A stretch of DNA of 24,000 bases from Nitrososphaerota archaeon (GCA_038817485.1 JAWAZL010000005.1:12435-36434), one strand, 5' to 3'. Numbered from the stretch's first letter, positions 8,023 through 22,833 are shown. Notes: generated from the letters alone by a model not told the origin. Numbers and translations are program-made.

Positions 8023-8400
8023 ATGAAAAAATTATCTCCTAGAGAATTAAGGAGATTACAATCAAGAATGCTTCAAGGATTAGATTTAAGAAATTATGGT
8101 ATAGCTAATGAAGTTGTGATAAATTTTAATGATAAAAAAATAATTGTAAAATCTCCTTCAGTTACATCTCTTAAAATAGAAGGTGAACAAGTATTTCAAA
8201 TAGTTGGTGGAGAAATTTTTGAAGAAAAAACTGAACTTCCTTTAGAAGAAAAAGAAGAAATAGCTTTAGAAATAAAAGAAGATGATATAATATTAGTAGC
8301 TCAGCAAGCAAATGTTTCCATGGAAGAAGCAAAAAAAGCTTTACAAGAAACTAATGGAGATTTGGCAAAAGCAATTTTGCTTTTAAAATCAAGAAAATGA
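8023..8400 (+). CDS. nac: nascent polypeptide-associated complex protein (archaeal NAC, NAC + UBA domains)
   Basis: NAC domain (VVINFNDKKIIVKSPSVTSLKIEGEQVFQIVG) and C-terminal UBA (DDIILVAQQANVSMEEAKKALQETNGDLAKAILLL). AGGAG at 8008-8012 is 10 nt before the ATG at 8023 but only 1 nt before the track ATG at 8014, so I prefer 8023. Confidence 0.85.
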   Translation: MKKLSPRELRRLQSRMLQGLDLRNYGIANEVVINFNDKKIIVKSPSVTSLKIEGEQVFQIVGGEIFEEKTELPLEEKEEIALEIKEDDIILVAQQANVSMEEAKKALQETNGDLAKAILLLKSRK

Positions 8401-10383
8401 AAAATACGAACTATCTTTAATATATTTTAATGAATTTTCAGATTTGCAAATTGGACATTTTTCAGAAAAACTATAACGTTTACATTTTTCACATAAAAAC
8501 AAACTGTGGCCAAAGCTTATTATTTCTAAGCTTGAAAACAAATTCTTTTTCTCAAAAAATTCATACATCATCTCCATACTCTTTATTGGAATAATTGTAT
8601 AATGCCCCCCTCTTAAATAAGTGTGTATAACAGACTCTATTTCTAGCCTTTTTCTAATATCAATTTCTTCTTCAATCGGTATGAGGTAATTTGAATATTT
8701 TAAATCTTCTTTTTTATAAGCAATTTGATTAACTTTTTTAATACCAAATTGTCGAATGTCATTAAGAATGAATCTTTTCATTGCTTGCATGGAAGAAGTA
8801 GATGAGAGGAGAATTTCTATATTTTTTGAAGAATTTTTACGTGTAAAAGTATCAGCCCATCTAAAAAATTTAATAAGATAATTTAATGAATCTTTATTTT
8901 CAGCAGGATTTCCATTTGTTAATGCTTTTATTGTTTCATAAACCCCTACTAAAGATAAAGAGAAATTAATTTTTTCTTTTATGCCTTTATCTATTAATAA
9001 TTTAGCTAAACTTAAAAATCCTTTATAGCATGTTTTAAAAACTTCTTCAACTTCGCTATGAAATCTTTCTTCATTTCCTTTACTTTCATAAAATATTCTT
9101 GGAATATTTATTGTGAATGATCCATATACATGTTCCCCAGAATATATTGTAAACCCTCCACTACCATAAAGCGCTCTTCGTTCATTTCTTCTAATAAGAA
9201 AATCTATTAAATGAATATTTTCTATTCCATCTTCTATTTCTATTTCTTCAAATGGAATCATTAATCTATATTTATCTATGAGATTTACTTTATCTAAAAA
9301 TTCATTATTTATTTTTTTAATTATTTCCATTATTTCTTTGAAAAAATCCATTTTTTCATAAAGATTTTGATCTGTTAAAGAAATGAATAATTTAGGATTT
9401 TCTTTTTTTCTTTGAGATAAAAGGAAATAGAATATTTTATAAAGATTCTTTTTAAAATTATACTCTCCTGATTTTTTATTTAAATTTAATAAAAATGATG
9501 AAAAATTATTTATAGATTGCTCATAATCAATTTTTTCAGCTTCTTCATTAATATAAAATAAAAATTTTTCAATTAAAATATCATCATTTTCATTAATAAA
9601 TTTATTAATGGAATTGGAAGAATAAAATACTCTATATGGTTTTACTAGCCAAAAATCTAGATTGTCAATATTTATTTTTCCTGCTAAATGCGCATCAGCC
9701 ACGTTTCTTGGAAGAATTTCTAATAAAGTATATTCTCTTAAAACTGCTCCAGAAGTATCCTTTATTATATTATGAATTTCATTCATTGATATTGAATTTA
9801 TTAATTTTGAAATATCATATAATGGTAAACCAACTCTAGTTAATTTATGACGATATTTTTCATAACCTAAATCTATTAATACAGCATTTGCAATTTCTCT
9901 AATAAGTGGTGCTGTGAGATATTCTATTTTTAAATTTTTAATTTTTTCATCTATTACATCAGCTACTTGTTTTGCTAAAGATGCTGGTGTACCAGCTTCT
10001 TTTACTAAAGCATTTATAATTTTATTTTTATCATAAACTTCTATTACAAATTGAGACTTTCTTACGTATAAATGAGTAGTATCTACTTCTTCTATTTCTT
10101 CTAAAATTTTTAATAATGTATCTCCTAAACGAGTTATCGCATACAATTTTGTTTCATTATCAATAGTAATTATTCCATTTTTTAATAATTTTTTTAAATG
10201 ATAGGAAAATTTTCCAGCATCTTGACTTTTAGATAAACCAATAGCTTTCATTAAATCTGTATAACTTAAATTTTGATTTCTTAAAGATTTAACAATTTTT
10301 AATCTTACAGGAGAAGATAAAGCATCTAAAATATTTGTTAAAAATTGTGATTTTTCAATTTTTTCTATTTCAAAATCTTTTAT
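8389..10383 (-). CDS. wHTH (ArsR-like) + ATP-cone + anaerobic ribonucleotide reductase (NrdD)-like domain + C-terminal Zn ribbon; probably non-catalytic
   Basis: The track ORF starts at the ATG at 10251, in the middle of a wHTH. The frame is open upstream to 10386 and encodes NILDALSSPVRLKIVKSLRNQNLSYTDL-MKAIGLSKSQDAGKFSYHLKKLLKNGII. ATP-cone-like segment: LYVRKSQFVIEVYDKNKIINALVKEAG...REIANAVLIDLGYEKY. NrdD-like blocks: ADAHLAGKINIDNLD, GSFTINIPRIF, YLRGGHYTIIPI, then CEKC-x8-CPIC. No Gly follows the Zn ribbon and there are only 5 Cys in total. The proposed ATA start at 10383-10381 is preceded by GGGGAT with a 5-nt spacer. Confidence 0.7.
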   Translation of the reverse strand: MKDFEIEKIEKSQFLTNILDALSSPVRLKIVKSLRNQNLSYTDLMKAIGLSKSQDAGKFSYHLKKLLKNGIITIDNETKLYAITRLGDTLLKILEEIEEVDTTHLYVRKSQFVIEVYDKNKIINALVKEAGTPASLAKQVADVIDEKIKNLKIEYLTAPLIREIANAVLIDLGYEKYRHKLTRVGLPLYDISKLINSISMNEIHNIIKDTSGAVLREYTLLEILPRNVADAHLAGKINIDNLDFWLVKPYRVFYSSNSINKFINENDDILIEKFLFYINEEAEKIDYEQSINNFSSFLLNLNKKSGEYNFKKNLYKIFYFLLSQRKKENPKLFISLTDQNLYEKMDFFKEIMEIIKKINNEFLDKVNLIDKYRLMIPFEEIEIEDGIENIHLIDFLIRRNERRALYGSGGFTIYSGEHVYGSFTINIPRIFYESKGNEERFHSEVEEVFKTCYKGFLSLAKLLIDKGIKEKINFSLSLVGVYETIKALTNGNPAENKDSLNYLIKFFRWADTFTRKNSSKNIEILLSSTSSMQAMKRFILNDIRQFGIKKVNQIAYKKEDLKYSNYLIPIEEEIDIRKRLEIESVIHTYLRGGHYTIIPIKSMEMMYEFFEKKNLFSSLEIISFGHSLFLCEKCKRYSFSEKCPICKSENSLKYIKDSSYFSFS

Positions 10384-10499: not shown

Positions 10500-10609
10500 G
10501 GGGCCGTGGTCTAGCATGGTTATGATACCCGGCTCGGAACCGGGAGAAAAAATTAATATTTTCCCGAAACAATTGCCCAAAGTCGCGAGTTCAAATCTCG
10601 CCGGCCCCA
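10500..10609 (+). tRNA. tRNA-Pro (anticodon CGG), 110 nt, with an intron of about 35 nt in the variable-loop region
   Basis: GGGGCCG TG GTCT AGCATGGTTA TGAT A CCCGG CTCGGAA CCGGG [40 nt: AGAAAAAATTAATATTTTCCCGAAACAATTGCCCAAAGTC] GCGAG TTCAAAT CTCGC CGGCCCC A. The anticodon arm is intact with no 37/38 insertion. Of the 40 nt between anticodon stem and T stem, only about 5 can be the variable loop. Position 37 reads A, not the G usual for tRNA-Pro. Confidence 0.8.
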
Positions 10610-10611
10610 TT

Positions 10612-11406
10612 TTAAATAATCATTCTTTTAAAACTTTTTAATTTTCCTAAAAATGTCCCATCTAAAAGAAAAATTTCGCTTTCTTCTATTGCTTTATCAT
10701 TTATTCTTAATAATGGACTAACATATTTATTTTCTTTAGTAATATTAATTGGAGTTCCTGAAAGAAAATCATTAAAAGCAGGTAAAATTACAATTTTAAT
10801 TAATGGTTTTTTAATTTTCTTTTTTATCATTAACTTTTTTAAAATTTCCTCTCTTTTTAAAAAGAAATTTATCCAAACTTTTTGTTTAAAAGAGAAACCA
10901 AATGAAGTTTTTAATTGTATTGTTGGATGAATATGAGCAAGGATGATAGTATCTGCTTCAAGCAATATTTTTTTAGATGGCCATGCATGACCATGTATTA
11001 AACCAATCTTTTCATTATCCTCTATTAATATTCCATGGCTTGAATGAAAAAATAATTTTGATGGAATAAGTTTTTTTATAGTACCATCATGATTTCCAAT
11101 TATTAAATTTATTTTATCAACTTTTTCATTCATTAATTCAATTAATTCTGGAAGAATTTTCCATTCAAATTTAGATGCTTTAGGGATATTATGTTTTAAG
11201 TCTCCTAAAATAAATATTTCATTAGGAGAAGTTTTTTCTATAAGTTTTAAAAAATTTTGTGAAATTATTTTTGATTGAGGAGGAATTCTAATTCCTAATT
11301 CGTATAATTCATATTCAAATCCTATATGTAAATCTGCTACTAGAAGCATTCTTTTATTTTTTATAGATAATATTGCAGCTGGCTCATTTTCCACTATTTT
11401 TAACAT
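10612..11406 (-). CDS. calcineurin-like metallophosphoesterase (COG1407/PdeM-like ICC phosphoesterase)
   Basis: The metallophosphoesterase motifs occur in order: LVADLHIG, GDLKHN, GNHD, GHAWP, AHIHP. The track starts at TTG 11409; the adjacent ATG at 11406 is more likely. The stop lies 2 nt from the 3' end of tRNA-Pro. Confidence 0.8.
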   Translation of the reverse strand: MLKIVENEPAAILSIKNKRMLLVADLHIGFEYELYELGIRIPPQSKIISQNFLKLIEKTSPNEIFILGDLKHNIPKASKFEWKILPELIELMNEKVDKINLIIGNHDGTIKKLIPSKLFFHSSHGILIEDNEKIGLIHGHAWPSKKILLEADTIILAHIHPTIQLKTSFGFSFKQKVWINFFLKREEILKKLMIKKKIKKPLIKIVILPAFNDFLSGTPINITKENKYVSPLLRINDKAIEESEIFLLDGTFLGKLKSFKRMII

Positions 11407-11439
11407 CAATTATTTATATTAATAATTATTATTAAATAT

Positions 11440-11790
11440 TTGAGGGAAATGGAAGAAGAAATAAATGATTTAGAAGAATTGAAGAAAAAATATGGAGAAA
11501 AATATATTGAAGCGATTAAATGTGTTAAAGAAAAAAGAGTAAAGAAGTATATTTTCAAACCTAGTAATATTAATTTTTGGATAGTAGTTGGATATACTAG
11601 AGATTATCTTGTTTTACCAGAAGTTAATTTTTGTTCATGTAATGATTTTTTCTTTCACGTTTTAGATAAAAAATATGATTTTTGCTACCATATTTTAGCA
11701 GTTAAAATAGCTTTAAAAAATAATCTTTATGAAGAAATAATAGAAGAAGATACATGGTATGAAAAATTAATTAAGGAGTGGAAAGCATAA
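11440..11790 (+). CDS. small SWIM-type zinc-finger protein
   Basis: SWIM signature CxCx(n)CxH: FCSCNDFFFHVLDKKYDFCYHILAV. The track start is TTG 11440; an alternative ATG lies at 11449 (MEEEINDLEE). It is divergent from the phosphoesterase gene with only about 30 nt between the starts. Confidence 0.75.
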   Translation: MREMEEEINDLEELKKKYGEKYIEAIKCVKEKRVKKYIFKPSNINFWIVVGYTRDYLVLPEVNFCSCNDFFFHVLDKKYDFCYHILAVKIALKNNLYEEIIEEDTWYEKLIKEWKA

Positions 11791-11814
11791 TTTTTTATAT
11801 AAAGGATGAAGAAT

Positions 11815-11931
11815 ATGTCAATAAGCGATTTTTTTAATACTGCATACTTTGGTTTATATGGATTAATTGTTTTAGTTTTTATATTAATAATTATATATAT
11901 TTTCTATACTTCTAGAGGAGAAGAAGCTTAA
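11815..11931 (+). CDS. possible 38-aa single-TM micro-protein (below the ORF-track cutoff)
   Basis: ATG at 11815 preceded by AAGGATGA. Translation is MSISDFFNTAYFGLYGLIVLVFILIIIYIFYTSRGEEA, one clean TM helix with a charged C-terminal tail. It fills most of an otherwise empty 168-nt gap between the SWIM and RPA genes. Confidence 0.3.
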   Translation: MSISDFFNTAYFGLYGLIVLVFILIIIYIFYTSRGEEA

Positions 11932-11958
11932 ATAATACAGTAAATAGGATAATGTAGA

Positions 11959-13374
11959 ATGAAAAATTATGAAGAAATTATTTCTTTAATAATTAGTAAA
12001 AGAAAGGATTTAACAAGAGAAGAAATAGAAAAGAAAATAGAAGAAAAAATTAAAGAAAGTCGTTTTCTTAATAAACTTGGAGCAGCACTTATTTTAGCTG
12101 AAGAATTAAATGTTTTTTTAGATTCTAATATTGGAAATTTTGAAAAAGAAACTTTAACAACAAGAATAATAGATTTAGTTTCGGGATTGAAAAATGTTGC
12201 AATAATTGGAAGAGTGCTTTTTATAACTCCTTTAAGAAAAATTGGTCAACATTCATATATTTTTGGAAAAATTGGTGATAAAACAGGAAAAATTAATTTA
12301 ATTTTATGGAATGAAGTTGCTTTAAATGTAGAAAAATTAAATCTTAAGTCTGGAGATATTATTAAAATAGAAGGAGGATATGTAAAACAAAGGTTTGATA
12401 GATTGGAATTAAATGTAGGAAAGAATGGAAAAATAGAAAAATTAGAAGAAGACTATGAACAACCAGATATATTATTTCATGTTCTTCCACTTAAAGAAGT
12501 TATAGATAAGGAGGGGATTTTTGATATAAAATGTAAAATTAAATCTATTGATCCATTAAAAACTGTTAATATAAAAAATGAAATGGTAAATTTAAGAGAA
12601 GCAATCATATTTGATGATTCTTATGAAGCAAAATTAGTTGCATGGAGAGACAAAATAGATATATTCAATAATATAGGAATAAATGATGAAATAATTTTAT
12701 TTGAAGTTAAATTAAAAAATTCCGAGGTACATACAACTAAAAATACATTCATAATGAAAATCGATTCTAAAAATGTAATGGAGAAAATAAAAGAAGAAAA
12801 ATATGAAATAATTAATAATTTAAAATTAAGAGTTGTTGAAATATTTAATCGTGAAATGTATTTTAAAAATATTCTTGGTTATGATGGAAATAAAATTGTA
12901 AGAATTAAATGCTTTTTAACAAAAAATTTAGATATTAATAAAGATGATATTATTGTTATAAAAAGGGGAATAAAGAATATTAAGGGTAACAGAGAAGAAA
13001 TCATTATTGAGAAAGAGAAAGATTATTTAATTCTTAAAAAAGATATAGAAGATTTCCCATATTATAAAGCAAAGGAATATACTCCAGATGATATTATTAA
13101 AGAAGAAAACGATATTGTTATTTATGGCTTATTAAAATCAAAATCTCCTTTAACAATTGTTGAAACAAAATATGGATTAGTTGAAAAAATTTATTTCTGG
13201 ATTTCTGGAAAAGAAAAAATAATTAGTGGTATTGCTTGGCGTGAAAATGCTTTAAAAATAAATCAAATAAATATAGGAGAAAAAGTTAAACTTAAATGGG
13301 TTAATATAAAAAGAAGATTTAAAGATCTTGAAATAGAAGTTACTTCAGATAGTATAATTGAGATTATTAAATAA
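11959..13374 (+). CDS. replication protein A-like ssDNA-binding protein (multiple OB folds, no zinc finger seen)
   Basis: N-terminal helical module (LTREEIEKKIEEKIKESRFLNKLGAALILAEELNV) as in euryarchaeal RPA. Repeated OB-fold-like units follow (e.g. VAIIGRVLFITPLRKIG...GKIGDKTGKINLILWNEVA...GDIIKIEGGYV and later repeats). There is no Cys cluster. Confidence 0.65.
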   Translation: MKNYEEIISLIISKRKDLTREEIEKKIEEKIKESRFLNKLGAALILAEELNVFLDSNIGNFEKETLTTRIIDLVSGLKNVAIIGRVLFITPLRKIGQHSYIFGKIGDKTGKINLILWNEVALNVEKLNLKSGDIIKIEGGYVKQRFDRLELNVGKNGKIEKLEEDYEQPDILFHVLPLKEVIDKEGIFDIKCKIKSIDPLKTVNIKNEMVNLREAIIFDDSYEAKLVAWRDKIDIFNNIGINDEIILFEVKLKNSEVHTTKNTFIMKIDSKNVMEKIKEEKYEIINNLKLRVVEIFNREMYFKNILGYDGNKIVRIKCFLTKNLDINKDDIIVIKRGIKNIKGNREEIIIEKEKDYLILKKDIEDFPYYKAKEYTPDDIIKEENDIVIYGLLKSKSPLTIVETKYGLVEKIYFWISGKEKIISGIAWRENALKINQINIGEKVKLKWVNIKRRFKDLEIEVTSDSIIEIIK

Positions 13375-13376
13375 TT

Positions 13377-14723
13377 TTACTTCACTATTCTTAATTCATT
13401 CTCATATTCTTTAATAACATCTTCAAATATATTAAGACCAATTTCAAGATATTCCTCCTCTATATTAAGTGGAGGTGCTATTCTAAAAGTAGAAATACCA
13501 CAACTAATAATTGCTAATCCTTGTTTAAAACAACGCATCATAATTTCTCTAACTTCTTTTTTACCAGGATTTTTAGTTCTCTTATCTGTTACAATCTCTA
13601 CTCCTATCATTAATCCTTTTCCGCGAACATCACCAATTAATTCATATTTTTCTTCCATTTCTTTAAGCCTTTTTAAAACACTTCTTCCGAGTCTAGTAGC
13701 ACGTTCCAAAAGATTTTCATTTCTTATAATTGAGATCGTTGCAAGAGCTGCTTCACAAGAAACAGGACATCCTCCAAAAGTTGTTGCATGACTTCCAACT
13801 TCCCAATCCATTATAGATTCTTCTGCTACAGTAGCACCTAATGGCAAACCAGAAGCTAAAGATTTTGCAATACATATAATATCTGGAGATACATTATAAT
13901 GTTCTATTGCAAACCATTTTCCAGTTCTACCCATTCCAGCTTGTATTTCATCATCTATAAGCAATATATCATATTCATCAGCTAATTTCTTTAATTTCAT
14001 AAAATAATCGTCTGGAGGAAATACATATCCCCCTTCTCCTTGAATAGGTTCAAAAACTATTGCTGCAACTTCTTCTGGTGGAACATATTTTTCCAATACA
14101 TATTCTTTTATATAATCAACACACCATAAATTACATTCAGGATATGTTTGTTTAAATGCACATCTATAACAATATGAGAAAGGAACATGAATTACATTTG
14201 GCATAAGTGGAGAAAAATACCTTTTTTGAACAGGTTTGCTTGCCGTTAAACTTAAAGCTCCAATAGTTCTTCCATGAAAACTATTAATAAAAGCAATAAA
14301 ATATGATTTACGTGTATGCCATCTAGACATTTTTATAGCTGCTTCTATTGCTTCAGCTCCACTATTTCCAAAATAGACTCTCTTTTTAAAAGAGCCGGGA
14401 GTTATTTTACAAAGTTCCTCAGCAAGTGTTACAGCATTTTCAAAATAGAAATCTGTTAATGAATAATTTAGAAATTTTTCAATTTGCTTTTTAATTCTTT
14501 CAATAACATATGGGTGACTATGTCCTACATTAGAGCAAAGTATTCCAGAATTAAAATCTATATATTGATTACCATCAACATCTTCTACTATGCTTCCTTT
14601 TGCAGATTTTACAACAAGAGGATAATATCTTGTGAAAGATTGAGAAATAACTTCTTCATCTCTTTTTAAAATCTCTTTAGCAATTGGTCCTGGAGGTGGA
14701 ACTTTAATATTTGGATATTTCAT
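13377..14723 (-). CDS. class-III PLP-dependent aminotransferase (4-aminobutyrate / (acetyl)ornithine aminotransferase family)
   Basis: GNSGAEAIEAAIKM, FHGRTIGALSLT, LLIDDEIQAGMGRTGKWFA, and the PLP-lysine context DIICIAKSLASGLPLG. The exact substrate cannot be inferred. Confidence 0.9.
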   Translation of the reverse strand: MKYPNIKVPPPGPIAKEILKRDEEVISQSFTRYYPLVVKSAKGSIVEDVDGNQYIDFNSGILCSNVGHSHPYVIERIKKQIEKFLNYSLTDFYFENAVTLAEELCKITPGSFKKRVYFGNSGAEAIEAAIKMSRWHTRKSYFIAFINSFHGRTIGALSLTASKPVQKRYFSPLMPNVIHVPFSYCYRCAFKQTYPECNLWCVDYIKEYVLEKYVPPEEVAAIVFEPIQGEGGYVFPPDDYFMKLKKLADEYDILLIDDEIQAGMGRTGKWFAIEHYNVSPDIICIAKSLASGLPLGATVAEESIMDWEVGSHATTFGGCPVSCEAALATISIIRNENLLERATRLGRSVLKRLKEMEEKYELIGDVRGKGLMIGVEIVTDKRTKNPGKKEVREIMMRCFKQGLAIISCGISTFRIAPPLNIEEEYLEIGLNIFEDVIKEYENELRIVK

Positions 14724-14729
14724 ATAAAA

Positions 14730-14735
14730 ATCACC
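14730..14735 (-). promoter_or_regulatory. Shine-Dalgarno-like site GGTGAT, 6 nt upstream of the aminotransferase ATG
   Basis: Minus strand GGTGAT-ttttat-ATG. It is complementary to the conserved archaeal 16S 3' end (GAUCACC). The 16S gene is not in this window, so this rests on established knowledge. Confidence 0.55.
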
Positions 14736-14802
14736 GATTTTCTAGAAACCATATTAATAAGTAGTTTATAATTCTTTATAAAATAAAATTATAGATAGGT
14801 TA

Positions 14803-15093
14803 TTAATGCGCAACTGTGATTTCTATATAGCTAATGTATTTTCTCTCTCCATTTTCTAATATTTTCTCATCACTTCCAATAGAAATTTTCTTAATAATAG
14901 CATCTTTCATAAAGCTTTTACGAAGAGATTCAACAACATCTATACACTTAGGAATAGCTTTTCCTCTTGCTCTAAAAATAACTTCCTTTTTTCCTTCATT
15001 GAATAAAGTTATACATGCTGTAATATAACGATCTATTGGTTTACGACCTATAGCTACAATATTATTTTTTATTTCTTCATTAGACATTTCCAT
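14803..15093 (-). CDS. albA: DNA/RNA-binding chromatin protein Alba
   Basis: NIVAIGRKPIDRYITACITLFNEGKKEVIFRARGKAIPKCIDVVESLRKSF and the C-terminal ISYIEITV match the Alba fold signature. The length (96 aa) is typical. Confidence 0.9.
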   Translation of the reverse strand: MEMSNEEIKNNIVAIGRKPIDRYITACITLFNEGKKEVIFRARGKAIPKCIDVVESLRKSFMKDAIIKKISIGSDEKILENGERKYISYIEITVAH

Positions 15094-15172
15094 TAATTTA
15101 GAATTATTATTTTTCCCTTAAAAATATTTCTATTTATAATTATTTATTTGTATGAAAAAATATTATTAATAG

Positions 15173-15625
15173 ATGAATGAAGGAGAGAAAAATAGAATAA
15201 TTGATGATTTAGAATTAAAAATAATTAAGCTTTTAGAAAATAAACCTATGAGTGCAGCAGAATTAAGTTTAGCTTTAAATGTTTCAAAACCCTCAATTTA
15301 TGTAAGAATCAATAGATTGCTTTCAAAAGGGGTTATTGTAAAAAAGAGAATTGAGAATAAAGTTGTTTTTTGTTTATCAAAAGTTCCTGAAGAAAAACAT
15401 GAAGAAATAGAAAGTATCAAAATTAAACATAAGATTGAAATAAAAAATATTTTAGAAAAAACAATAATATATTCTCTTATATTTATAGGAATGGTGATAT
15501 TTCTTTATACAATTTATAGCGCTATAGAAAAAAGCATGCCTTTAAGAATAGTAGGTGGGCTTATCATCGCATTTCCATTATGGATGATTGCTTTATGGTT
15601 AAAAGGTAAATTTAAAGAAAGTTAA
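15173..15625 (+). CDS. membrane-tethered winged-helix transcriptional regulator (N-terminal wHTH, two C-terminal TM helices)
   Basis: wHTH LELKIIKLLENKPMSAAELSLALNVSKPSIYVRINRLLSKGVIVKKRIENKVVF, a charged linker, then TM helices TIIYSLIFIGMVIFLYTIYSAI and IVGGLIIAFPLWMIALWL. Confidence 0.7.
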   Translation: MNEGEKNRIIDDLELKIIKLLENKPMSAAELSLALNVSKPSIYVRINRLLSKGVIVKKRIENKVVFCLSKVPEEKHEEIESIKIKHKIEIKNILEKTIIYSLIFIGMVIFLYTIYSAIEKSMPLRIVGGLIIAFPLWMIALWLKGKFKES

Positions 15626-15759
15626 GAAGAATTAAGGAAAATTAAAATTAATTAATCAAAAATATTCATTCTTTAACAATTTTTAAGAAATGTTAAGCTA
15701 ATTTTTTAAAGAATGCTTTACGATAGGAATAAATCTTAGAAAATATTAATGAAAAATTA

Positions 15760-17841
15760 ATGAGAAAGAATTTATCGAAAGAAAAATTCGATACAATTTT
15801 AGATGAAGAAAGTATAAATTTCATAAGAAAAATGTTACCCTTTACTACAACATTTTTAATAATTTTTATTTTTATATTGTTTATTCCTTTTATAACAATC
15901 ATAATTTTTTTATTACCAATAATAGCAATTTTATCATTCATATCGAAAAGAATTAGAAAAAGCATAGTAAACTTTTTTAAATTACCATTCATTTTTTCAT
16001 TTAAAATAGCTCTTTTCATATCTAGCTTATTTTCAAAAAATAGAATGCAAATTATTAATAAATTTATTAAAGATAGTTTAGAAATGAATAATTTCTCTTC
16101 TAATAAAATTAAAGCAGATATAATTTTAGGATATAGATGGGTTGGTAAATCTTTTTTTGGATATCTTTCAAAAACAGGAATTAATTTTGAAAACCTTGAA
16201 AGAGGCGTAACAATTCTTGGATCTTATGGATTAAACATTATGCGTAAAATAATTAAAGAAGCTGCTATGAAAGAGATTGGAATAATTATCTTTGACTCAT
16301 CTAATCTTATTGGAACTCCTAAAAATGTTAATTCAACTAAGGTTTATAATGTTGGTATTGATACTTTAATTAATCCAATGGATGCTAAACCATTACCTTT
16401 AAAAATTTGGACAAATATTTTGGCAATGGCTATTTCTGTTGCATGCACATTGGATATTGAAGAAGCAAGTTTATTAGCAGATTTCTTTTATAATCAATAT
16501 GAATATGAAAACATATTAAGAGTTGATCAAGTAAATTTATGGAGTGATGGCTTAAATAGATTTTTTGAAAAAAGGAGAGCGGATATTTTAAAAGCAGATA
16601 TTAAAAAACTTTTATTAACAAAAATTTTTTCTGATGAAGGGAAAAATATTTTAAGCTTTTTACCAAAAAGAGGCGAAATAATATGCTTAAGAGTAGGAGG
16701 AATAGATAGAGAACAAAAAACTTTCCTTTTAATATTGTTCATAGGTGTTTTGCATCAAGTTTTAAAAAAGAAGAAAGAAAGGATTCTTATAGTTATAGAT
16801 GAGTTACAAAACCTTTTGCCTCAAATACATCTTTTACCATATGATTATAGACCTGTAATGGAAAGGTTAATGTACATGCTTAAAGAAGCATCAAAGAACA
16901 TTAGTTTATTATTGCATACTTCTGCAACATGGATAGCAAATTATGCTTACAGCATAACTCCAAATTTAATAATAACAGCTATTGAGGATCCATATATTGC
17001 AAATGAAATATCTAAAGTATTTGCATTAGGAAAAGAAGGGGACAATTTTATATTAAAACTTTCACCTCAAGAAAGCATTGTGAAAGTAATGACACATGAA
17101 GGTATGAAAACTTTCTTAATGCTTACACCTATAATAGATTTTAATACAGATATGAATATGGAAAATTTACTTGAAAAAGAAATAGAAGAGAATGTTACAA
17201 CTCTTAAAAAAGACTTTCTTAATAAAAGTGAAGTTGCATATAATATTATGAAATATGTTTTTCAATTAAAAAATGTGAATATAGCAACAATTCAAGCATA
17301 TCTTTCAGATAAATATGAATTGAATGATATAAGAGAATTAATTAAAGAACTTATTGATAAAAAATATTTAAAATTTCCTTCTATTAATGAAGAAAAAATA
17401 GAAATAACTGAAAAAGGAATTTTTGCAATTAATGAATGGGAAGAAAGGAATTTTATAAAAAAGAAAGAAGATATTAAAGAAGAAGAAATTTATTTAAAAA
17501 TTAATGAAAAACTTGTTAAAAAATTAATTGAAGCAGAGAAAAAATTTTTAAATCAAGAATGGTGCCAATCAATTATTCTATGTTATAATTTAGTTAGGCA
17601 TGTGATGATATTATTAATTTCAAATCCAGAAAAAACTAGATGGAAAAAATTTAAAGCATTATATGAAACTTTATGTATTGAAGGCTTAAAACCAATAGAA
17701 ATGGAGGATATTGAATGGTTAGAAGAAATAAAGAATAAAGCTGAAAAAGCAGATTTAAGCATAGGAGAAAAAGAAGCTGAAAGAGCATTAAAAATTGCAA
17801 AGAATGTCTTAATGAGTATTCTAAGGAAGGGGAAAAAATGA
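15760..17841 (+). CDS. membrane-anchored P-loop NTPase with an internal winged helix and a helical C-terminal tail (HerA/FtsK-like or Arch_ATPase-like; family unresolved)
   Basis: Residues about 26-95 contain 2-3 TM helices (FTTTFLIIFIFILFIPFITIIIFLLPIIAILSFI; LPFIFSFKIALFISSLF). Literal Walker A GYRWVGKS (aa 124-131, nt 16129-16152). A second HerA-like strand-loop VTILGSYGLN...IGIIIFD has no Lys. Walker B is ILIVIDELQNL (aa 342-352). wHTH about aa 485-560 (NIATIQAYLSDKYELNDIRELIKELIDKKYL...ITEKG). A Lys/Glu-rich helical tail runs to aa 693. Confidence 0.7.
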   Translation: MRKNLSKEKFDTILDEESINFIRKMLPFTTTFLIIFIFILFIPFITIIIFLLPIIAILSFISKRIRKSIVNFFKLPFIFSFKIALFISSLFSKNRMQIINKFIKDSLEMNNFSSNKIKADIILGYRWVGKSFFGYLSKTGINFENLERGVTILGSYGLNIMRKIIKEAAMKEIGIIIFDSSNLIGTPKNVNSTKVYNVGIDTLINPMDAKPLPLKIWTNILAMAISVACTLDIEEASLLADFFYNQYEYENILRVDQVNLWSDGLNRFFEKRRADILKADIKKLLLTKIFSDEGKNILSFLPKRGEIICLRVGGIDREQKTFLLILFIGVLHQVLKKKKERILIVIDELQNLLPQIHLLPYDYRPVMERLMYMLKEASKNISLLLHTSATWIANYAYSITPNLIITAIEDPYIANEISKVFALGKEGDNFILKLSPQESIVKVMTHEGMKTFLMLTPIIDFNTDMNMENLLEKEIEENVTTLKKDFLNKSEVAYNIMKYVFQLKNVNIATIQAYLSDKYELNDIRELIKELIDKKYLKFPSINEEKIEITEKGIFAINEWEERNFIKKKEDIKEEEIYLKINEKLVKKLIEAEKKFLNQEWCQSIILCYNLVRHVMILLISNPEKTRWKKFKALYETLCIEGLKPIEMEDIEWLEEIKNKAEKADLSIGEKEAERALKIAKNVLMSILRKGKK

Positions 17842-18680
17842 GATATATTTCTACTGGTTGTAAAATTCTAGATAAATTAATGGGTGGTGGTTTCTTAGCA
17901 AGTGCAATAAATCTTATTTATGGAGATCCTGGAAGTGGAAAAACAACATTAATCCTTCAAACAATTCTTAATTTATCTAAAAATTGTGAAGGAGAATTTT
18001 TCTATTTAGATACAGAACAAGGTTTTCATGAATCTAGATTATTACAAATGGCTAAAGCTCTTAATATTAATAAATCAATTTTGGAACGTATGTATATAAC
18101 TCGTGTAGATAGCTTAAGTGAGCAACATAAAATTATTATTCATAAATGGGAAGAAATAATAAAAAATGAAGGGCTTCAACCATTAGCTTTTATAGTTGAT
18201 AGTTTTGTGAATCAATATCATAAGCAACTATTAGCTGCAAAAACTGCCTTTTTAGCAAGTGAAGCTAGAGAATTACAAGGTAAGCTTGCATATCAATCTG
18301 GAAAATTAATGAGTTTAGCTATAAAGTATGATGTACCTGTTATTCTTGTATCATGGACTAAAAGTGCTGCATATAAAACATTTTTAGATAGGGAAAGGAA
18401 TAAAATGTTAAAAAAACAAGAATTATTAGATTTAGAATTAGGTTTTGATGCAAAAAGGTTTGAAGTAATAGGTGGTTCTCATCTTGAATATGTAAGTAAA
18501 ACAATATTGAGATTATTGATTTTGAAAGATTATAAACGTCTTGCAATCTTAGAAAAACATATAGCTATGCCTACTCCTAAAGTAGTAAAGCTTAAAATGA
18601 GTGAAGAAGGATTGGTTGGAGATGATGAAAAAGTATACGAATTAAATGATTACTGGAAAAAGATAATTAAGGAAACATAG
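17838..18680 (+). CDS. radB: RadB-type RecA-superfamily ATPase (RadA paralog)
   Basis: ISTGCKILDKLMGGGF...INLIYGDPGSGKTTLILQ (Walker A), FYLDTEQGFHESRLLQMAK, Walker B LAFIVDSF, ELQGKL...LAIKYDVPVILVS, and C-terminal GGSHLEYVSKTILRL...LAILEKHIAMP. All are collinear with RadB/RadA core motifs, and there is no RadA N-terminal HhH domain. The ATG overlaps the upstream stop (ATGA at 17838-17841). Confidence 0.75.
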   Translation: MRYISTGCKILDKLMGGGFLASAINLIYGDPGSGKTTLILQTILNLSKNCEGEFFYLDTEQGFHESRLLQMAKALNINKSILERMYITRVDSLSEQHKIIIHKWEEIIKNEGLQPLAFIVDSFVNQYHKQLLAAKTAFLASEARELQGKLAYQSGKLMSLAIKYDVPVILVSWTKSAAYKTFLDRERNKMLKKQELLDLELGFDAKRFEVIGGSHLEYVSKTILRLLILKDYKRLAILEKHIAMPTPKVVKLKMSEEGLVGDDEKVYELNDYWKKIIKET

Positions 18681-19322: not shown

Positions 19323-19919
19323 ATGAAGAAATATAGAATTCTCTATTTAATTAGTGGAATTATTTTTCTAATAGTATCTATAATTGGTGGTGCTTGGTGG
19401 GAATTTATTGGAGGTATAGCTTCTAAACCATTCTTATATATTGGCCTTTCTCCATTTGATTTTAAGTTTGAACTTCTAGGTTTAGAACCCATTAAGCTAC
19501 CACCTCTTATACTGAGTTTATTCTTATGTGAAAGATTACTTGCTATAATTGGATCGATTACAATAATTATTGGATCGTTATTATATAATAAAAAATGGTC
19601 AAGAAGATTTCTTAATCTTAGACCATTCACAATGCCTATAGTATTTACTATCATAATCTTAATTGGCATTATTGTAATAATATCATTGACACAACATTTC
19701 ATACCTATTGTATCTCAAGTTATGCCAAACTTAAGGGATGCATTATTGCCATATTCAAATCAATATTTAATTATAAACCTTCATCCAATATCACATATAG
19801 ATGCTTCCTTAAAGATCAAAGTTTTATCTCAATTCACATTTAGATTTTGGATGGCTTTGTTATCAGGTTTGTTATGTTTGATAGCTTTAATTCTTCATAA
19901 AAAAGAAACTAAGAAATAA
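19323..19919 (+). CDS. polytopic membrane protein (198 aa, about 5 TM), function unknown
   Basis: It starts 5 nt after the stop of the preceding gene. Hydrophobic segments include ILYLISGIIFLIVSIIGGAWW, LILSLFLCERLLAIIGSITIIIGSLLY, MPIVFTIIILIGIIVIISL and FWMALLSGLLCLIALIL. Confidence 0.65.
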   Translation: MKKYRILYLISGIIFLIVSIIGGAWWEFIGGIASKPFLYIGLSPFDFKFELLGLEPIKLPPLILSLFLCERLLAIIGSITIIIGSLLYNKKWSRRFLNLRPFTMPIVFTIIILIGIIVIISLTQHFIPIVSQVMPNLRDALLPYSNQYLIINLHPISHIDASLKIKVLSQFTFRFWMALLSGLLCLIALILHKKETKK

Positions 19920-20058
19920 ATTTTTTAAATATTCTAAAGTACTTTAAAGATTAAAAATTCTTAGATGATATGCTGAATATATTTCAAAATATTTTTTATT
20001 CTTAAATTTTTCTATTTATTTACTTTATTGAGAAGATTAAAGAGAATTACTAATATTT

Positions 20059-22833
20059 TTATGCCTCAATTTCAATAGGCTTTAAGCGTCTTATAAAGAA
20101 TTTTCTTATTTCTTCAGCAAAGAAAATAATTGGAGAAAACATAAATAAGAAAAGCCAATCATATAAACTTAATGGAACTGTATTAAAAACATATTGTAAT
20201 GGTTGGAAATAGATTATAAATAAAGTTATAATCATTTCACCAAGAATACCAAAAAATATCCATTTATTTGATAAGAAACCAACTTTAAATAATGATGTGC
20301 GGCTAGTTCTACAAGCAAAAACATTACCAATTTGAGTTGTAACTATACTTGCAAAAGCCATAGTTGTTCCCTTCTTATATAAGTAACTACTTGTACTTAA
20401 TGGCTGTCCAAAATTCCATCCTCCAGATATCCATGTTGTAAGTGCACTAATCATTGATGCAAAAGCTTCTATCATTCCAAGGAAAAATGAACGCGCTATC
20501 ATTCCCATATCTAAAAGCCTCTCTTTCTGACTTCTTGGTGGTTGTAACATTAAAATAGGTTTTGGATGTTCAACTCCTAATGCTAAAGCTGGTAAAACAT
20601 CCGTTCCTAAATCAACAGCTAATATTTGCATAAGTGTAAGAGCAAGTGGAATCTTAAATAATACAAAAGCAATGAATGGAATTAATTCTGGCCAATTTGA
20701 AGAAAGAATATAAGTAGTAAATCTTTTTATGTTTCTGAATATGCCTCTACCTTCCTCAATGGCATTAACAATAGTAGCAAAATTATCATCAAGCAATATT
20801 ATATCAGCGGATTCTTTTGCTACGTCTGTACCTGCAATACCCATAGCAATTCCTATATCTGCTGCTTTTAATGATGGTGCATCATTAACTCCATCTCCAG
20901 TAACAGCTACAATTTCACTTTTCTTTTTAAGTAATCTCACTATTCTAAGCTTATGTTCTGGAGTAATTCTAGCAAAAACTATTCCATCATTATCCAATTC
21001 TTTTAATAATTCTTCATCACTTAATTTATCTAAATCAGATCCTGTAAAAACTTTACATTTATCATCTTTTATTATTGATGTTTGTAAAGCTATAGTTTTA
21101 GCTGTTAATTCATGATCTCCAGTAACCATTATTATTTTAATTCCTGCCTTTCTAGCTTTTTCAATAGCTTCTTTAACTCCTGGTCTAGGAGGATCGTACA
21201 TTGCCATTAATCCAATAAAAACAAGATCTTTTTCTATATTTTCAATTGTATATTCTTGAATATTTTGAGGTATTTCTTTATATGCAAAAGCAAGAACTCG
21301 TAATCCTTCTCTTGCAAATTCATTTATTTGTGAAATTATTTTATTCTTATAATAAAATGAAAGCTCTTTATTTATTCCATTGATTAATATATACTTACAT
21401 TTAGATAAAACTTCATTTGGTGCTCCTTTAACATAAGCTATCTTTTTATTACCTGTGGTATGAATTGAACTCATCATTTTTCTTATAGGATCAAATGGTA
21501 TCATATGAATACGTGGTTTTTTAGCTAAAGCTAAATTAATATTAAAATCAAGTTTTTGAGAAGCAATAAGTAAAGCAATTTCTGTAGGATCTCCAATTGC
21601 TTCCCATCGAGATTTAGTATCGGATGGGGGGATTATTTTTGCATTATTGCAAAATGTTGCTGCTTCAAATAATAGGTTTAATTCTGGTAAGTCATTTATT
21701 GATATCCTTTTACCATTTAAGATAATATCTCCATGAGGCTCATATCCAATACCTGTAGCTTGTAAAATTTTATCATTTATCCATATTTTTGTTACAGTCA
21801 TTTCTCCTTTTGTTATTGTTCCAGTTTTATCTGTACATATTGTTGTAACGCATCCTAATGTTTCTACAGCTGAAAGACGTTTTACTAAAGCATTTTTACG
21901 TGCCATTCTTCGTATACTCATTGCTAAAGAAACGGATATCGTTGCTTGTAAACCTTCTGGAATACATGCTACCATTACTCCAATTCCAAATAAGAATGCT
22001 TCAATTAAGCTAATCTTTAATAGAATCCCAATAATGGAAAAAATCATACCAATTATAATTGCCATGATCGATAATGTTTTTGCAGTCCTAGAGATTTCTT
22101 TTTGTAAAGGACTTGGTTCTTCCTTAATAGCTTGAGCAAGATTAGCGATCGAACCAAATTTAGTTCTCATTCCGGTTGAAAATACTACTGCTTTACCTTG
22201 GCCTGAAATAACTGTCGTACCCATTAATACAATATTTGGTATATCTGTCCAAGATACATTTTCCTCTAAAAAAGGCTCAGCATTCTTTACTTGAGGTGCA
22301 GATTCTCCAGTTAAAGCTGCGCTACTAATCGTGATTCCAAAGCTTTCAATTAAACGAGCATCAGCTGGAACATTATCTCCCTCTTCCAATATGATAAGGT
22401 CTCCTGGAACAAGTTCACTTGCATATATTTTCTTTACTATCCCATCTCTACATACTTTAGCATAAAGTGGCATAAGTTTCTTTAATTCTTTAACAAGTTT
22501 CTCAGCTCTATATTCTTGTAACAATCCTACAATAGCATTAATAATAACTATTAGTATAATAGCTATACTAAGTTCGATCATATTTAAAATAAAAGCAAGT
22601 AAGCTTGCAATAATTAATAGTATTGCAAATAAGCTTTTAAATTGTTCAAAAAATTTAATAATTATTGATTTTCTCCTAAATTCTCTTATAATATTAGGTC
22701 CATATTCTTTTAAACGTTTTCTAGCTTCTATCTCACTTAATCCATTTTCTGAAGTATTCAGTTCTCTGAGTACTTCTTTGATTGGTAGCATATGAATTTT
22801 CGTATTGACTTCTTTTGTAATATTTGTATTCAT
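20059..22833 (-). CDS. cation-transporting P-type ATPase, P2 (Ca2+ / Na+,K+-like) class
   Basis: All core motifs are present: LTGESAPQ (TGES), PEGLQATISVSLAMSIRRMARKNALVKRLSAVETLG, phosphorylation site ICTDKTGTITKG, KGAPNEVL, MVTGDHELTA, VTGDGVNDAPSLKAADIGIAMG. It has about 10 TM segments and is 924 aa long. Confidence 0.9.
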   Translation of the reverse strand: MNTNITKEVNTKIHMLPIKEVLRELNTSENGLSEIEARKRLKEYGPNIIREFRRKSIIIKFFEQFKSLFAILLIIASLLAFILNMIELSIAIILIVIINAIVGLLQEYRAEKLVKELKKLMPLYAKVCRDGIVKKIYASELVPGDLIILEEGDNVPADARLIESFGITISSAALTGESAPQVKNAEPFLEENVSWTDIPNIVLMGTTVISGQGKAVVFSTGMRTKFGSIANLAQAIKEEPSPLQKEISRTAKTLSIMAIIIGMIFSIIGILLKISLIEAFLFGIGVMVACIPEGLQATISVSLAMSIRRMARKNALVKRLSAVETLGCVTTICTDKTGTITKGEMTVTKIWINDKILQATGIGYEPHGDIILNGKRISINDLPELNLLFEAATFCNNAKIIPPSDTKSRWEAIGDPTEIALLIASQKLDFNINLALAKKPRIHMIPFDPIRKMMSSIHTTGNKKIAYVKGAPNEVLSKCKYILINGINKELSFYYKNKIISQINEFAREGLRVLAFAYKEIPQNIQEYTIENIEKDLVFIGLMAMYDPPRPGVKEAIEKARKAGIKIIMVTGDHELTAKTIALQTSIIKDDKCKVFTGSDLDKLSDEELLKELDNDGIVFARITPEHKLRIVRLLKKKSEIVAVTGDGVNDAPSLKAADIGIAMGIAGTDVAKESADIILLDDNFATIVNAIEEGRGIFRNIKRFTTYILSSNWPELIPFIAFVLFKIPLALTLMQILAVDLGTDVLPALALGVEHPKPILMLQPPRSQKERLLDMGMIARSFFLGMIEAFASMISALTTWISGGWNFGQPLSTSSYLYKKGTTMAFASIVTTQIGNVFACRTSRTSLFKVGFLSNKWIFFGILGEMIITLFIIYFQPLQYVFNTVPLSLYDWLFLFMFSPIIFFAEEIRKFFIRRLKPIEIEA

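Follow-up and report, generated by a model that had tools for sequence, protein, structure and literature searches.

A membrane-anchored protein of the HerA-FtsK superfamily, apparently degenerate in its catalytic motifs, encoded next to a RadB-like ATPase in a Nitrososphaerota archaeon

HerA-FtsK ATPases are DNA pumps that act in chromosome segregation, conjugation, end resection, virus packaging and several antiphage systems. The window analysed here, a stretch of 24,000 nucleotides from a Nitrososphaerota archaeon (GCA_038817485.1 JAWAZL010000005.1:12435-36434), encodes a 693-aa protein whose best structural and profile matches are to HerA, the group that includes the archaeal HerA-NurA end-resection helicase and the bacterial antiphage complexes SIR2-HerA and DUF4297-HerA. 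Like HerA, it has a helical insertion in its RecA-like core and a dedicated partner gene alongside. Unlike HerA, it appears membrane-anchored, lacks the N-terminal barrel, ends in winged helix-turn-helix (wHTH) and HEPN-like domains, and is without both the Walker A Lys and Ser and the SQRPS Gln and Arg. The partners also differ in type, a RecA-family ATPase here as against a nuclease or SIR2 for HerA.

TrwB/VirD4 and, by description, CedB/CedD share the N-terminal transmembrane (TM) anchor and the all-alpha insertion within a HerA-FtsK-type core, whereas the present locus has no transfer or pilus genes nearby and the motifs of its protein appear eroded. FtsK/SpoIIIE shares the superfamily and the order of parts (a membrane anchor, then a motor-type core, then a winged helix at the C-terminus), but the 693-aa protein has a wHTH of MarR/DtxR type and no predicted functional Walker A. 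RadB/RadA paralogues resemble the partner in being RecA-fold ATPases with Walker A and Walker B intact; in contrast to RadB, the partner carries an extension and is always tied to an apparently dead HerA-like gene. In the membrane-embedded archaellum motor, the KaiC-like ATPase ArlH docks on the hexameric ATPase ArlI.

Architecture and superfamily placement

An earlier note, made from the sequence of the window, had proposed an FtsK-like domain order with a P-loop NTPase core and an unusual, ambiguous P-loop. The open reading frame was recovered as described, as was the order of two N-terminal TM helices, P-loop-type core and winged helix (Table 1), and all of the quoted strings were located: GYRWVGKS at aa 124-131, VTILGSYGLNIMRKII at aa 150-165, IGIIIFD at aa 173-179, and IVIDELQ at aa 344-350 (D347/E348). 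Scans of the 693-aa protein alone against Pfam, NCBIfam, PHROGs and PDB sequences gave nothing significant, and no curated family matched it.

Table 1. Features of the locus, with positions counted from the first nucleotide of the window
Feature	Position	Strand	Details
Small wHTH protein (TrmB/ArsR/Lrs14-like) with two C-terminal TM helices	15173..15625	+	Pfam TrmB E 2.4e-7, HTH_24 E 4.6e-7
ORF of the putatively degenerate HerA-FtsK-superfamily protein	15760..17841	+	693 aa; membrane-anchored, with wHTH and HEPN-like domains (predicted)
TM hairpin (two helices)	15829..15945	+	aa ~24-62; Kyte-Doolittle window means up to 3.35
Weaker hydrophobic/amphipathic helix	15964..16032	+	aa ~69-91; hydropathy 1.67-1.83; AlphaFold helix 63-90, low pLDDT
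Beta-hairpin with literal GYRWVGKS	16120..16182	+	aa 121-141; DSSP strands E121-128, E135-141
Candidate degenerate Walker A unit	16207..16296	+	aa 150-179: strand VTIL, loop GSYGLN, helix, strand IIIFD
Alpha-helical insertion, Walker A to Walker B	16354..16659	+	aa ~199-300; four helices, pLDDT below 50
Walker B strand LIVIDELQ (D347, E348)	16783..16809	+	DSSP E342-346; aligns with HerA invariant E-A-H of EEAH
SQRPS counterpart strand SLLLHTSATW	16903..16932	+	aligned with HerA SSQRPSE, gap at Arg
Winged helix-turn-helix	17200..17451	+	aa ~481-564; Pfam Penicillinase_R E 0.025; pLDDT 80-93
HEPN-like helical domain (weak assignment)	17479..17829	+	aa ~574-690; no Rx4-6H motif in the window copy
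Purine-rich aggaagggg, then ATGA stop/start overlap	17825..17841	+	read from sequence
RadB/Rad51/KaiC-like RecA-superfamily ATPase	17838..18680	+	280 aa; intact Walker A GDPGSGKTT, Walker B FIVDS

The AlphaFold model (mean pLDDT 65, pTM 0.45) was computed from 7 sequences and is of moderate quality only. Hydropathy analysis gave a main hydrophobic block at aa ~21-66 and a weaker one that may be membrane-associated, and the model placed long helices at 7-61 and 63-90. An N-terminal hydrophobic block was present in every complete gene upstream of the partner in the related loci. In the model, only a helix (93-111) and a hairpin (121-141) lie between the membrane helices and the core, and the HAS-barrel domain of HerA is absent; with only ~55 aa separating membrane segment and core, there is no space for that barrel.

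For the core, Foldseek of the model against PDB gave S. solfataricus HerA as the best match (4d2i, E 1.9e-8), followed by HerA-NurA, antiphage HerA, TrwB (1e9r, E 2.5e-6) and VirB4 (8rtd, 1e-5), all at prob 1.0, with TM-scores of the model to HerA of at most 0.44. A viral structure library returned HerA_C, conjugal-transfer, FtsK and packaging ATPases. The family profile matched HerA (8xau, E 3e-5) and DptH (E 0.0066, spanning family-profile positions 168-341) in PDB by hmmsearch, and hhalign against five bona fide HerA genes reached 96.9% probability (E 2e-10) over aa 265-441 of the window protein, with Walker B and the subsequent strands aligned residue by residue. The Pfam DUF87/HerA_C threshold was not reached, the sole match being to HerA_C at 15.4 bits in the relative P0012 (cutoff 22), and no NurA, Mre11 or Rad50 genes were called in the window or related loci.

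By profile and modelled fold, the core belongs to the HerA-FtsK superfamily, which bears out the P-loop-type core. Two alternatives had been left standing in the earlier note. The one that proposed a HerA/FtsK-like fold whose P-loop is displaced or eroded agrees with the top Foldseek matches, all of them HerA, TrwB or VirB4, with the HerA profile matches, and with the placement of VTILGSYGLN at the P-loop position; the other, an Arch_ATPase-like NTPase with a large insertion, does not hold, as PF01637 (ATPase_2) gave no match in the target (the partner gene does match, E 5.5e-9) and GYRWVGKS is not conserved and is a beta-hairpin turn in the model. The comparison with FtsK survives as an analogy of domain order and no further: FtsK_SpoIIIE and FtsK-gamma gave no Pfam match at E up to 10 in the window protein and six relatives, and FtsK lay outside the top 50 PDB matches.

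C-terminal to the core, the wHTH was matched in family members by the Pfam models Penicillinase_R, MarR_2 and TrmB, in PDB by IdeR (E 0.017), and in Foldseek by MarR, CggR and PadR (prob ~1.0, E 0.03-0.15). Support for its resemblance to MarR/DtxR-type domains, from profiles and model, is thus weak yet consistent, and the domain is retained even in short forms of 516-535 aa. The Lys/Glu-rich tail, which had previously been left unassigned, stood out by composition (K+E 32%, against 20% in the whole protein) and may be HEPN-like, a weak assignment for which one relative exceeds the Pfam threshold: PF05168 matched P0013 at 25.8 bits (E 1.3e-5; gathering threshold 22), P0010 at 17.2 and P0009 at 14.6, and did not match the window protein itself. 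The tails of the relatives align over their full length with that of the window protein, and PDB searches with the tail gave weak matches to TT1696 and AF0298. Foldseek with a separate C-terminal model returned wHTH matches only, so the HEPN assignment is unconfirmed by fold search. The window tail has no Rx4-6H motif, reading KNKAEKAD where P0012 has RRYAKYG and P0013 REEVRYH, and the tail is missing altogether in the short forms and in the related locus L029.

Nucleotide-binding motifs

The literal GxxxxGK[ST] string noted earlier exists, but a functional Walker A role for it did not hold up, since it is not conserved: its counterparts are GYSWRGKW in P0009, GYSWRGTW in P0010, GYTVGGYL in P0011 and GRTLTSGL in P0012. 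In a relaxed hhalign alignment GYRWVGKS falls in the HerA element preceding the P-loop strand. Alignment and model together make it an upstream hairpin unrelated to the nucleotide loop.

At the P-loop position the alignment and the model instead place G154-SYGLN, without Lys and without Ser/Thr. The unit around it is modelled as strand, helix and strand (DSSP E150-153, H157-170, E174-179) at pLDDT ~85, and G154 is invariant in 8 sequences. In the relaxed hhalign alignment, GSYG is opposite HerA GSTG and is followed by a 3-residue gap opposite HerA S-G-K, while IIIFD is aligned to the HerA strand ending in D186; the register was taken from that relaxed profile alignment, with moderate confidence for the loop itself. 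The loop reads GSHGTH, GERASD, GGLKDQS, GEESVY, GNPQTL and GSPLNI in relatives, and no detectable relative has GK[ST] at the P-loop position, whereas the HerA G-T-G-G-K-S positions do not vary among five bona fide HerA proteins. Against PDB, a profile restricted to the P-loop region gave chance-level matches only (e.g. SRP54, BIRC2). In L012, the gene that precedes the partner carries GPPLWRKS and was considered as a less eroded relative; it was left out of the P-loop register because hhalign gave it 1.8% probability.

Walker B is intact in the window protein (IVIDE) and variable in the family (IDDLQ, IHEFN, IDEAH, IDRAH, LDAIE, IDGSL, LNGDI). In the SQRPS counterpart, Gln and Arg are both lost and the strand reads HTS-ATW, while Q484, R485, P486 and S487 are invariant in the five bona fide HerA proteins; the SQRPS Arg is what we take to be the arginine finger in FtsK/HerA. 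R364, in a conserved LLPYDYRPV, was considered as an arginine finger and dropped because the HerA alignment puts the superfamily's conserved Arg in SQRPS, where it is absent here. Because the Walker A Lys and Ser/Thr are gone family-wide, the SQRPS Arg is gone and Walker B varies, the family is most likely one of pseudo-ATPases, as far as sequence motifs can tell.

The earlier note did not remark on the family-wide erosion, the loss of the SQRPS Arg, the HEPN-like tail or the coupling to a RadB-like gene.

Partner gene and genomic context

The partner matched Pfam Rad51 (E 6.5e-15, 55.5 bits against a threshold of 22), NCBIfam RadB TIGR02237 (E 1.2e-29, 103.7 bits, under the equivalog cutoff of 172.4) and, in PDB, RadB 2cvf (E 1.9e-17). 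KaiC and ArlH/FlaH models matched as well, with scores higher for RadB/RadA/Rad51 than for KaiC. Among lineages the partner shows 40-59% identity with its motifs invariant, the target being less conserved at 22-34%, and it carries a C-terminal extension of ~100 aa with conserved motifs of its own (SWTKSAA, AILEKH).

All other lineages repeat the stop/start overlap of target and partner (Table 1) or have a gap of 2 nt instead, so that the partner overlaps or abuts the target gene throughout, also in relatives that share 22-34% identity. This arrangement suggests translational coupling of the target to the RadB-like ATPase gene and is the main clue to function. Because the dead HerA-like gene always adjoins an intact RecA/RadB-like gene, the two resemble a two-protein machine not described before.

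Searched exhaustively, a set of 1.84 billion proteins yielded six matches, and two wider-alignment profile searches of a 5.8-billion-protein collection returned only the same nine proteins; the related loci were found by scanning with the better-conserved partner sequence. Upstream of the target lies the small wHTH gene with two TM helices (wHTH-2TM), and proteins of the same architecture, at 22-27% identity, adjoin the module in L011, L012 and L025. The partner in L005/L021 shares its end with an overlapping ERCC4-HhH nuclease gene and PCNA is close by, and toxin-antitoxin-like genes are found near the module in L005 and L025. The window flanks are housekeeping genes, syntenic in close relatives, and the other genomic neighbours vary among lineages. 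Hints of a link to DNA are the wHTH kept in short forms, the partner being nearer to RadB/RadA than to KaiC, and the ERCC4-HhH/PCNA genes of L005/L021, the hint of DNA repair being confined to one lineage. A signalling or a defence role would accommodate the neighbouring membrane wHTH regulator and the HEPN-like domain just as readily.

Possible functions of the pair

On balance, and with middling confidence, we infer that the 693-aa protein is a membrane-tethered DNA-binding scaffold, catalytically degenerate, that recruits or regulates a RecA-like ATPase. Its parts would follow one another as TM hairpin, linker and beta-hairpin, RecA-like core with helical insertion, MarR/DtxR-like wHTH and HEPN-like domain. 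Judged by its motifs, and with the Walker B Asp-Glu still intact in the window copy, it would no longer hydrolyse ATP; it would form a membrane-tethered, probably oligomeric platform, bind DNA through the wHTH and recruit or regulate the RadB/Rad51-like ATPase from the overlapping downstream gene, which would supply the ATPase activity. A membrane-tethered wHTH regulator would often be the third component, and the module might handle DNA at the membrane or serve signalling. With the fold kept and the Walker A lysine and SQRPS Arg lost, the protein would clearly exemplify the evolution of a pseudo-enzyme scaffold from a motor, it would indicate an uncharacterised membrane-associated process in poorly cultured archaea (Nitrososphaeria, Bathyarchaeia), and a function-linked partner would now be assigned to one of the archaeal RadA/KaiC paralogues, many of which are unassigned. 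A bolder proposal, which we hold only tentatively, is that the pair constitutes a novel membrane-bound machine of Nitrososphaeria and Bathyarchaeia in which a former DNA-pump platform positions the RecA-family ATPase and DNA held by the wHTH; incoming or membrane-tethered DNA might then be coupled to recombination or repair, with the HEPN-like domain as a regulatory add-on.

Several other functions were weighed against the scaffold. A membrane signalling module, with a RecA/KaiC-like switch, a dead HerA-like sensor or scaffold and a wHTH output (adjacent wHTH-2TM or fused), is unlikely though it deserves some weight: the wHTH-2TM protein adjoins the module in four lineages, the partner also matches the KaiC and ArlH/FlaH models, and archaeal KaiC-like ATPases are, according to a published proposal, signalling hubs. 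Since the genomic neighbours otherwise differ among lineages, the module would also move as a self-contained unit. The partner is, however, far better matched to RadB/RadA/Rad51 than to KaiC, outside the membrane there is no recognisable sensor domain, and the wHTH-2TM gene is not adjacent in L005/L021, L006 and L029. It is improbable that the protein is a coupling-protein-like or CedB/CedD-like part for DNA transfer or import that passes DNA at the membrane to the RadA paralogue. The layout of TM helices, nucleotide-binding core and helical insertion is that of TrwB/VirD4, to which the Foldseek matches with TrwB and VirB4 also point; CedB and CedD, described as HerA-clade proteins of Crenarchaeota (PMC11868833), are HerA-clade ATPases required for DNA import in Sulfolobales (PMC11868833, PMC11823120). 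Yet pilin, VirB4, CedA and relaxase genes were not evident in the window or related loci, no T4SS-related Pfam model (T4SS-DNA_transf, TraG-D_C, TrwB_AAD_bind) matched, and a motor lacking the Walker A Lys and SQRPS Arg would be predicted not to translocate DNA alone.

Slightly less probable again is an anti-virus, abortive-infection-type system in which a HEPN RNase effector sits on a HerA-like platform, comparable to SIR2-HerA and DUF4297-HerA. Antiphage HerA complexes are among the closest solved relatives, the HEPN-like tail of P0013 has an R-x5-H motif (LREEVRYH), and toxin-antitoxin-like genes occur near two of the modules; but in the window copy the motif position holds no Arg/His pair, L029 and the short forms have no tail at all, the antiphage HerA proteins examined all retain Walker A and SQRPS, unlike the family here, and the window is flanked by syntenic housekeeping genes. 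A PADLOC match to mad8 (E 4.8e-5) was set aside as evidence of defence and read as generic P-loop similarity, because the RecA-like partner is matched by the same model. That the protein is instead an active NTPase, with GYRWVGKS as an odd, Arch_ATPase-like Walker A, or a working FtsK/SpoIIIE-type translocase, we regard as very unlikely. A literal GxxxxGK[ST] is improbable by chance (0.008 expected by composition in a 693-aa protein), G129-K130 is retained in P0009, and the Walker B Asp-Glu is intact in the window; against this, K130/S131 is replaced in P0010 (GT-W), P0011 (GY-L) and P0012 (SG-L), the model gives the motif the form of a turn joining two hairpin strands and not of a strand-loop-helix, the ATPase_2, FtsK_SpoIIIE and FtsK-gamma models do not match, and hhalign sets the motif upstream of the HerA P-loop strand. 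More generally, annotators may be misled by a literal GxxxxGK[ST] string.

Core fold and nucleotide site

The 693-aa protein was confirmed as a real open reading frame (15760..17841, + strand), and every string quoted in the earlier note was located in it: GYRWVGKS at aa 124–131, VTILGSYGLNIMRKII at aa 150–165, IGIIIFD at aa 173–179, and IVIDELQ at aa 344–350. An AlphaFold model built on a 7-sequence family alignment was moderate overall (mean pLDDT 65, pTM 0.45), with confident parts in the P-loop unit (pLDDT ~85), much of the core, the winged helix and the tail. Foldseek comparison of this model with the PDB supported a P-loop-type core, the ranking being led by S. solfataricus HerA (E 1.9e-8), followed by HerA–NurA, antiphage HerA complexes, TrwB (2.5e-6) and VirB4 (1e-5); the top matches were exclusively from the HerA-FtsK superfamily, each at a probability of 1.0 and with TM-scores of at most 0.44. 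Matches in the viral library fell into this superfamily too: HerA_C proteins, a conjugal transfer protein, packaging ATPases of membrane viruses, and FtsK. Sequence-profile evidence was obtained independently of the structural matches: the family profile matched the PDB chains HerA 8xau (E 3e-5), HerA 8ziq (E 0.004) and DptH (E 0.0066), and its hhalign comparison with an alignment of five plasmid-borne, bona fide HerA genes of antiphage systems, every one with a DUF4297 or SIR2 neighbour, reached 96.9% probability (E 2e-10, aa 265–441 of the window protein). Structural and profile matches therefore place the core in the HerA-FtsK superfamily, with HerA nearest.

GYRWVGKS, previously taken as the literal Walker A string, does not lie at the P-loop position: it was modelled in a beta-hairpin turn (strands 121–128 and 135–141) and is not conserved in relatives, which read GYSWRGKW, GYSWRGTW, GYTVGGYL and GRTLTSGL. 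A canonical strand-loop-helix-strand was modelled at aa 150–179 (VTIL, GSY, helix from G157, IIIFD). In a relaxed hhalign run, used to extend the HerA alignment across the P-loop region, G154-S-Y-G157 paired with HerA G-S-T-G, followed by a 3-residue gap at HerA S-G-K, IIIFD paired with the next HerA strand with high posterior, and GYRWVGKS mapped to the element preceding the P-loop strand. Model and profile alignment thus put the nucleotide-site position at the G154 loop, where the P-loop has been lost: G154 is invariant in 8 family members, and GK[ST] was found at this loop in none of the 8. Of the two folds offered earlier, the HerA/FtsK-like fold with an eroded P-loop is borne out, and the Arch_ATPase-like one is not supported, the protein having no ATPase_2 match.

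By sequence comparison, the erosion is family-wide and extends past Walker A to Walker B (IDELQ, IDDLQ, IHEFN, IDEAH, IDRAH, LDAIE, IDGSL and LNGDI across the family) and to the HerA motif SQRPS, of which Q-R-P-S is invariant in 5/5 bona fide HerA proteins; the window protein has HTS-ATW in its place, and the alignment gap falls on the Arg, which is the arginine finger in FtsK/HerA. Jointly, the lost Walker A, the varying Walker B and the lost SQRPS Arg indicate that the protein is most likely a pseudo-ATPase.

Domain order and family

Hydropathy gave a strong hydrophobic block at aa ~21–66, of a length that could hold two TM helices, followed by a weaker block at aa ~69–91, in agreement with the proposed N-terminal TM anchor. 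In the model, one helix and one hairpin are the sole elements between membrane segment and core, leaving no room for the N-terminal barrel of HerA. A separate model of aa 475–693 was good (pLDDT 82.7) and matched the wHTH domains of MarR, CggR and PadR in a fold search, and weak Pfam and PDB matches agreed with a winged helix. The order TM anchor, core, winged helix thus stands as described, but the likeness to FtsK goes no further than an analogous domain order.

The tail is Lys/Glu-rich, as noted earlier (K+E 32% versus 20% for the whole protein), and can be aligned end to end with those of relatives, of which P0013 scored above gathering for HEPN in Pfam (25.8 versus 22 bits, E 1.3e-5) and P0010 and P0009 below threshold. 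At the motif position the window copy reads KNKAEKAD, versus RRYAKYG or REEVRYH in relatives, and so has no Rx4-6H motif. The fold search of the C-terminal model did not confirm HEPN, and the tail profile had only weak PDB matches (TT1696 and AF0298).

Although HerA is the closest family, its barrel, Walker A, SQRPS and NurA context are all absent. TrwB/VirD4 and CedB/CedD, the latter being membrane HerA-clade DNA-import ATPases (PMC11868833, PMC11823120), have a TM anchor, core and helical insertion as here, a likeness of layout; no linked transfer genes of the kind found in these systems were seen. No significant match came from sequence scans of Pfam, NCBIfam, PHROGs and PDB, and the protein falls outside every curated family. 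Relatives are very rare: 1.84 billion representative proteins, searched exhaustively with HMMER, yielded six matches (one close clade at 87%, relatives at 34%, 26%, 24% and 20% identity, and one fragment), and an indexed search of 5.8 billion proteins returned nine, 8 of them close; the nearest public relative (94% identity) is from a MAG labelled Nitrososphaerota archaeon. The literature search found no paper describing the family or its pairing with the downstream gene, with a prior arCOG-level mention possible. We read the protein as a probable pseudo-HerA that is rare, evolves fast, is anchored in the membrane, carries wHTH and HEPN-like domains in the same chain and is locked to a RadB-like ATPase; it is a new variant inside the known HerA-FtsK superfamily.

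The RadB-like partner and its conserved pairing

The stop codon overlaps the start of the partner gene (ATGA), with a purine-rich stretch just upstream. The partner (17838–18680, 280 aa) is an ATPase of the RecA superfamily in which Walker A and Walker B are both intact, and it matches best Pfam Rad51 (E 6.5e-15), NCBIfam RadB (E 1.2e-29, under the equivalog cutoff) and PDB RadB 2cvf (E 1.9e-17). The same overlap, or a 2-nt gap, was found in every relative placeable on a contig. With the partner as query against species-representative genomes and metagenomes, every close homologue (E 1e-22 or better by local phmmer) whose upstream region is on contig was preceded by a gene that encodes an N-terminal hydrophobic block, and most of these upstream genes matched the family profile; short forms from Bathyarchaeia (516–535 aa) matched the family by hhalign (95%, E 3.9e-8). 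Across lineages, identity is 40–59% for the partner versus 22–34% for the pseudo-HerA. The two form a conserved gene pair with translational coupling, and this pairing is the main functional clue.

At locus L029 (2688–5775), a 677-aa member (E 2e-65 against the family profile), which lacks the HEPN tail and has a longer, multi-TM N-terminus, precedes a 371-aa RecA-like gene that is far more divergent (E 1.4e-6 against the partner), so that the pairing takes in a second partner type. At L012 and L022 the upstream gene is alike in position and architecture, without demonstrable homology to the family. The L012 gene (1751–3847), whose downstream partner is 38% identical, encodes TM helices, GPPLWRKS as a near-canonical loop, the strings LLVDAEGMY and VLAIDDASRFF, and a wHTH at the C-terminus, and no homology to the family was detectable by hhalign (1.8%); it is either an extremely diverged member or an analogous protein that has taken the family's place.

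Neighbouring genes and possible roles

In four lineages (see table) the module has beside it a small wHTH protein that carries two TM helices and may be a third component; the window and L011 copies have a C-terminal PLW(M/I)(I/L)ALWL motif in common. In the lineage of relative P0011, an ERCC4-HhH (XPF-like) nuclease gene overlaps the partner end by 4 nt (L005 3935–4732, L021 4446–5243) and a PCNA gene lies ~4 kb downstream, the sole repair-type linkage among the loci examined.

Coordinates of the winged helix and of genes in the window and related loci
Feature	Location	Strand	Basis or setting
Winged helix	693-aa protein, aa ~481–564		MarR, CggR, PadR wHTH matches of model; weak Pfam and PDB matches
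Small wHTH protein, two C-terminal TM helices	window 15173–15625	+	beside module
Small wHTH-2TM protein	L011 954–1604	-	beside module
Small wHTH-2TM protein	L012 845–1291	-	beside module
Small wHTH-2TM protein	L025 3679–4278	-	beside module
Metallophosphoesterase	window 10612–11409	-	Pfam label from syntenic L002
Small protein, SWIM-like Cys/His pattern	window 11440–11790	+	Pfam label from syntenic L002
471-aa OB-fold RPA-like protein	window 11959–13374	+	Pfam label from syntenic L002

What the protein is has good support; for its function we propose a model. It would no longer hydrolyse ATP and would act as a membrane-tethered, probably oligomeric platform, its wHTH binding DNA, that recruits or regulates the RecA-like partner as the source of activity. 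In favour of DNA handling at the membrane as the module's role are the habits of the HerA-FtsK superfamily, the wHTH kept universally in the family, the RadB-like partner and, in one lineage, the link to XPF. The membrane wHTH regulator beside the module speaks for signalling. The HEPN-like tail and the antiphage HerA proteins among the relatives suggest defence, but the ATPase motifs are eroded, the catalytic HEPN residues are missing in the window copy, and the module is flanked by syntenic housekeeping genes.

The window (G+C ~25%) holds archaeal housekeeping genes, among them those for Alba, a TFE-like protein, HflX, threonine synthase, NAC and an OB-fold RPA-like protein. The three-gene cluster at 10612–13374, directly upstream of aminotransferase and Alba genes, may be a DNA-metabolism grouping. 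Rfam placed a 110-nt, presumably intron-containing tRNA at 10500–10609 (+; 53.8 bits, E 3.4e-9); ARAGORN called zero tRNAs across the entire window, this one included. At 19919–20059 a gap of only ~140 nt stands in the window where L002, the locus of the 94%-identical relative, has four further genes (14177–16783; DrsE_2, TusA, Aminotran_5 and NifU_N), flanked by a 198-aa membrane protein and a P-type ATPase; ~2.6 kb of sulfur-relay/Fe-S genes has been gained or lost between these close strains. The NrdD-like gene at 8389–10251 (-) encodes 620 aa in the window and in related locus L003, and 664 aa with an additional N-terminal HTH_5 match in L002 (2646–4640); its start may be mis-called or variable.
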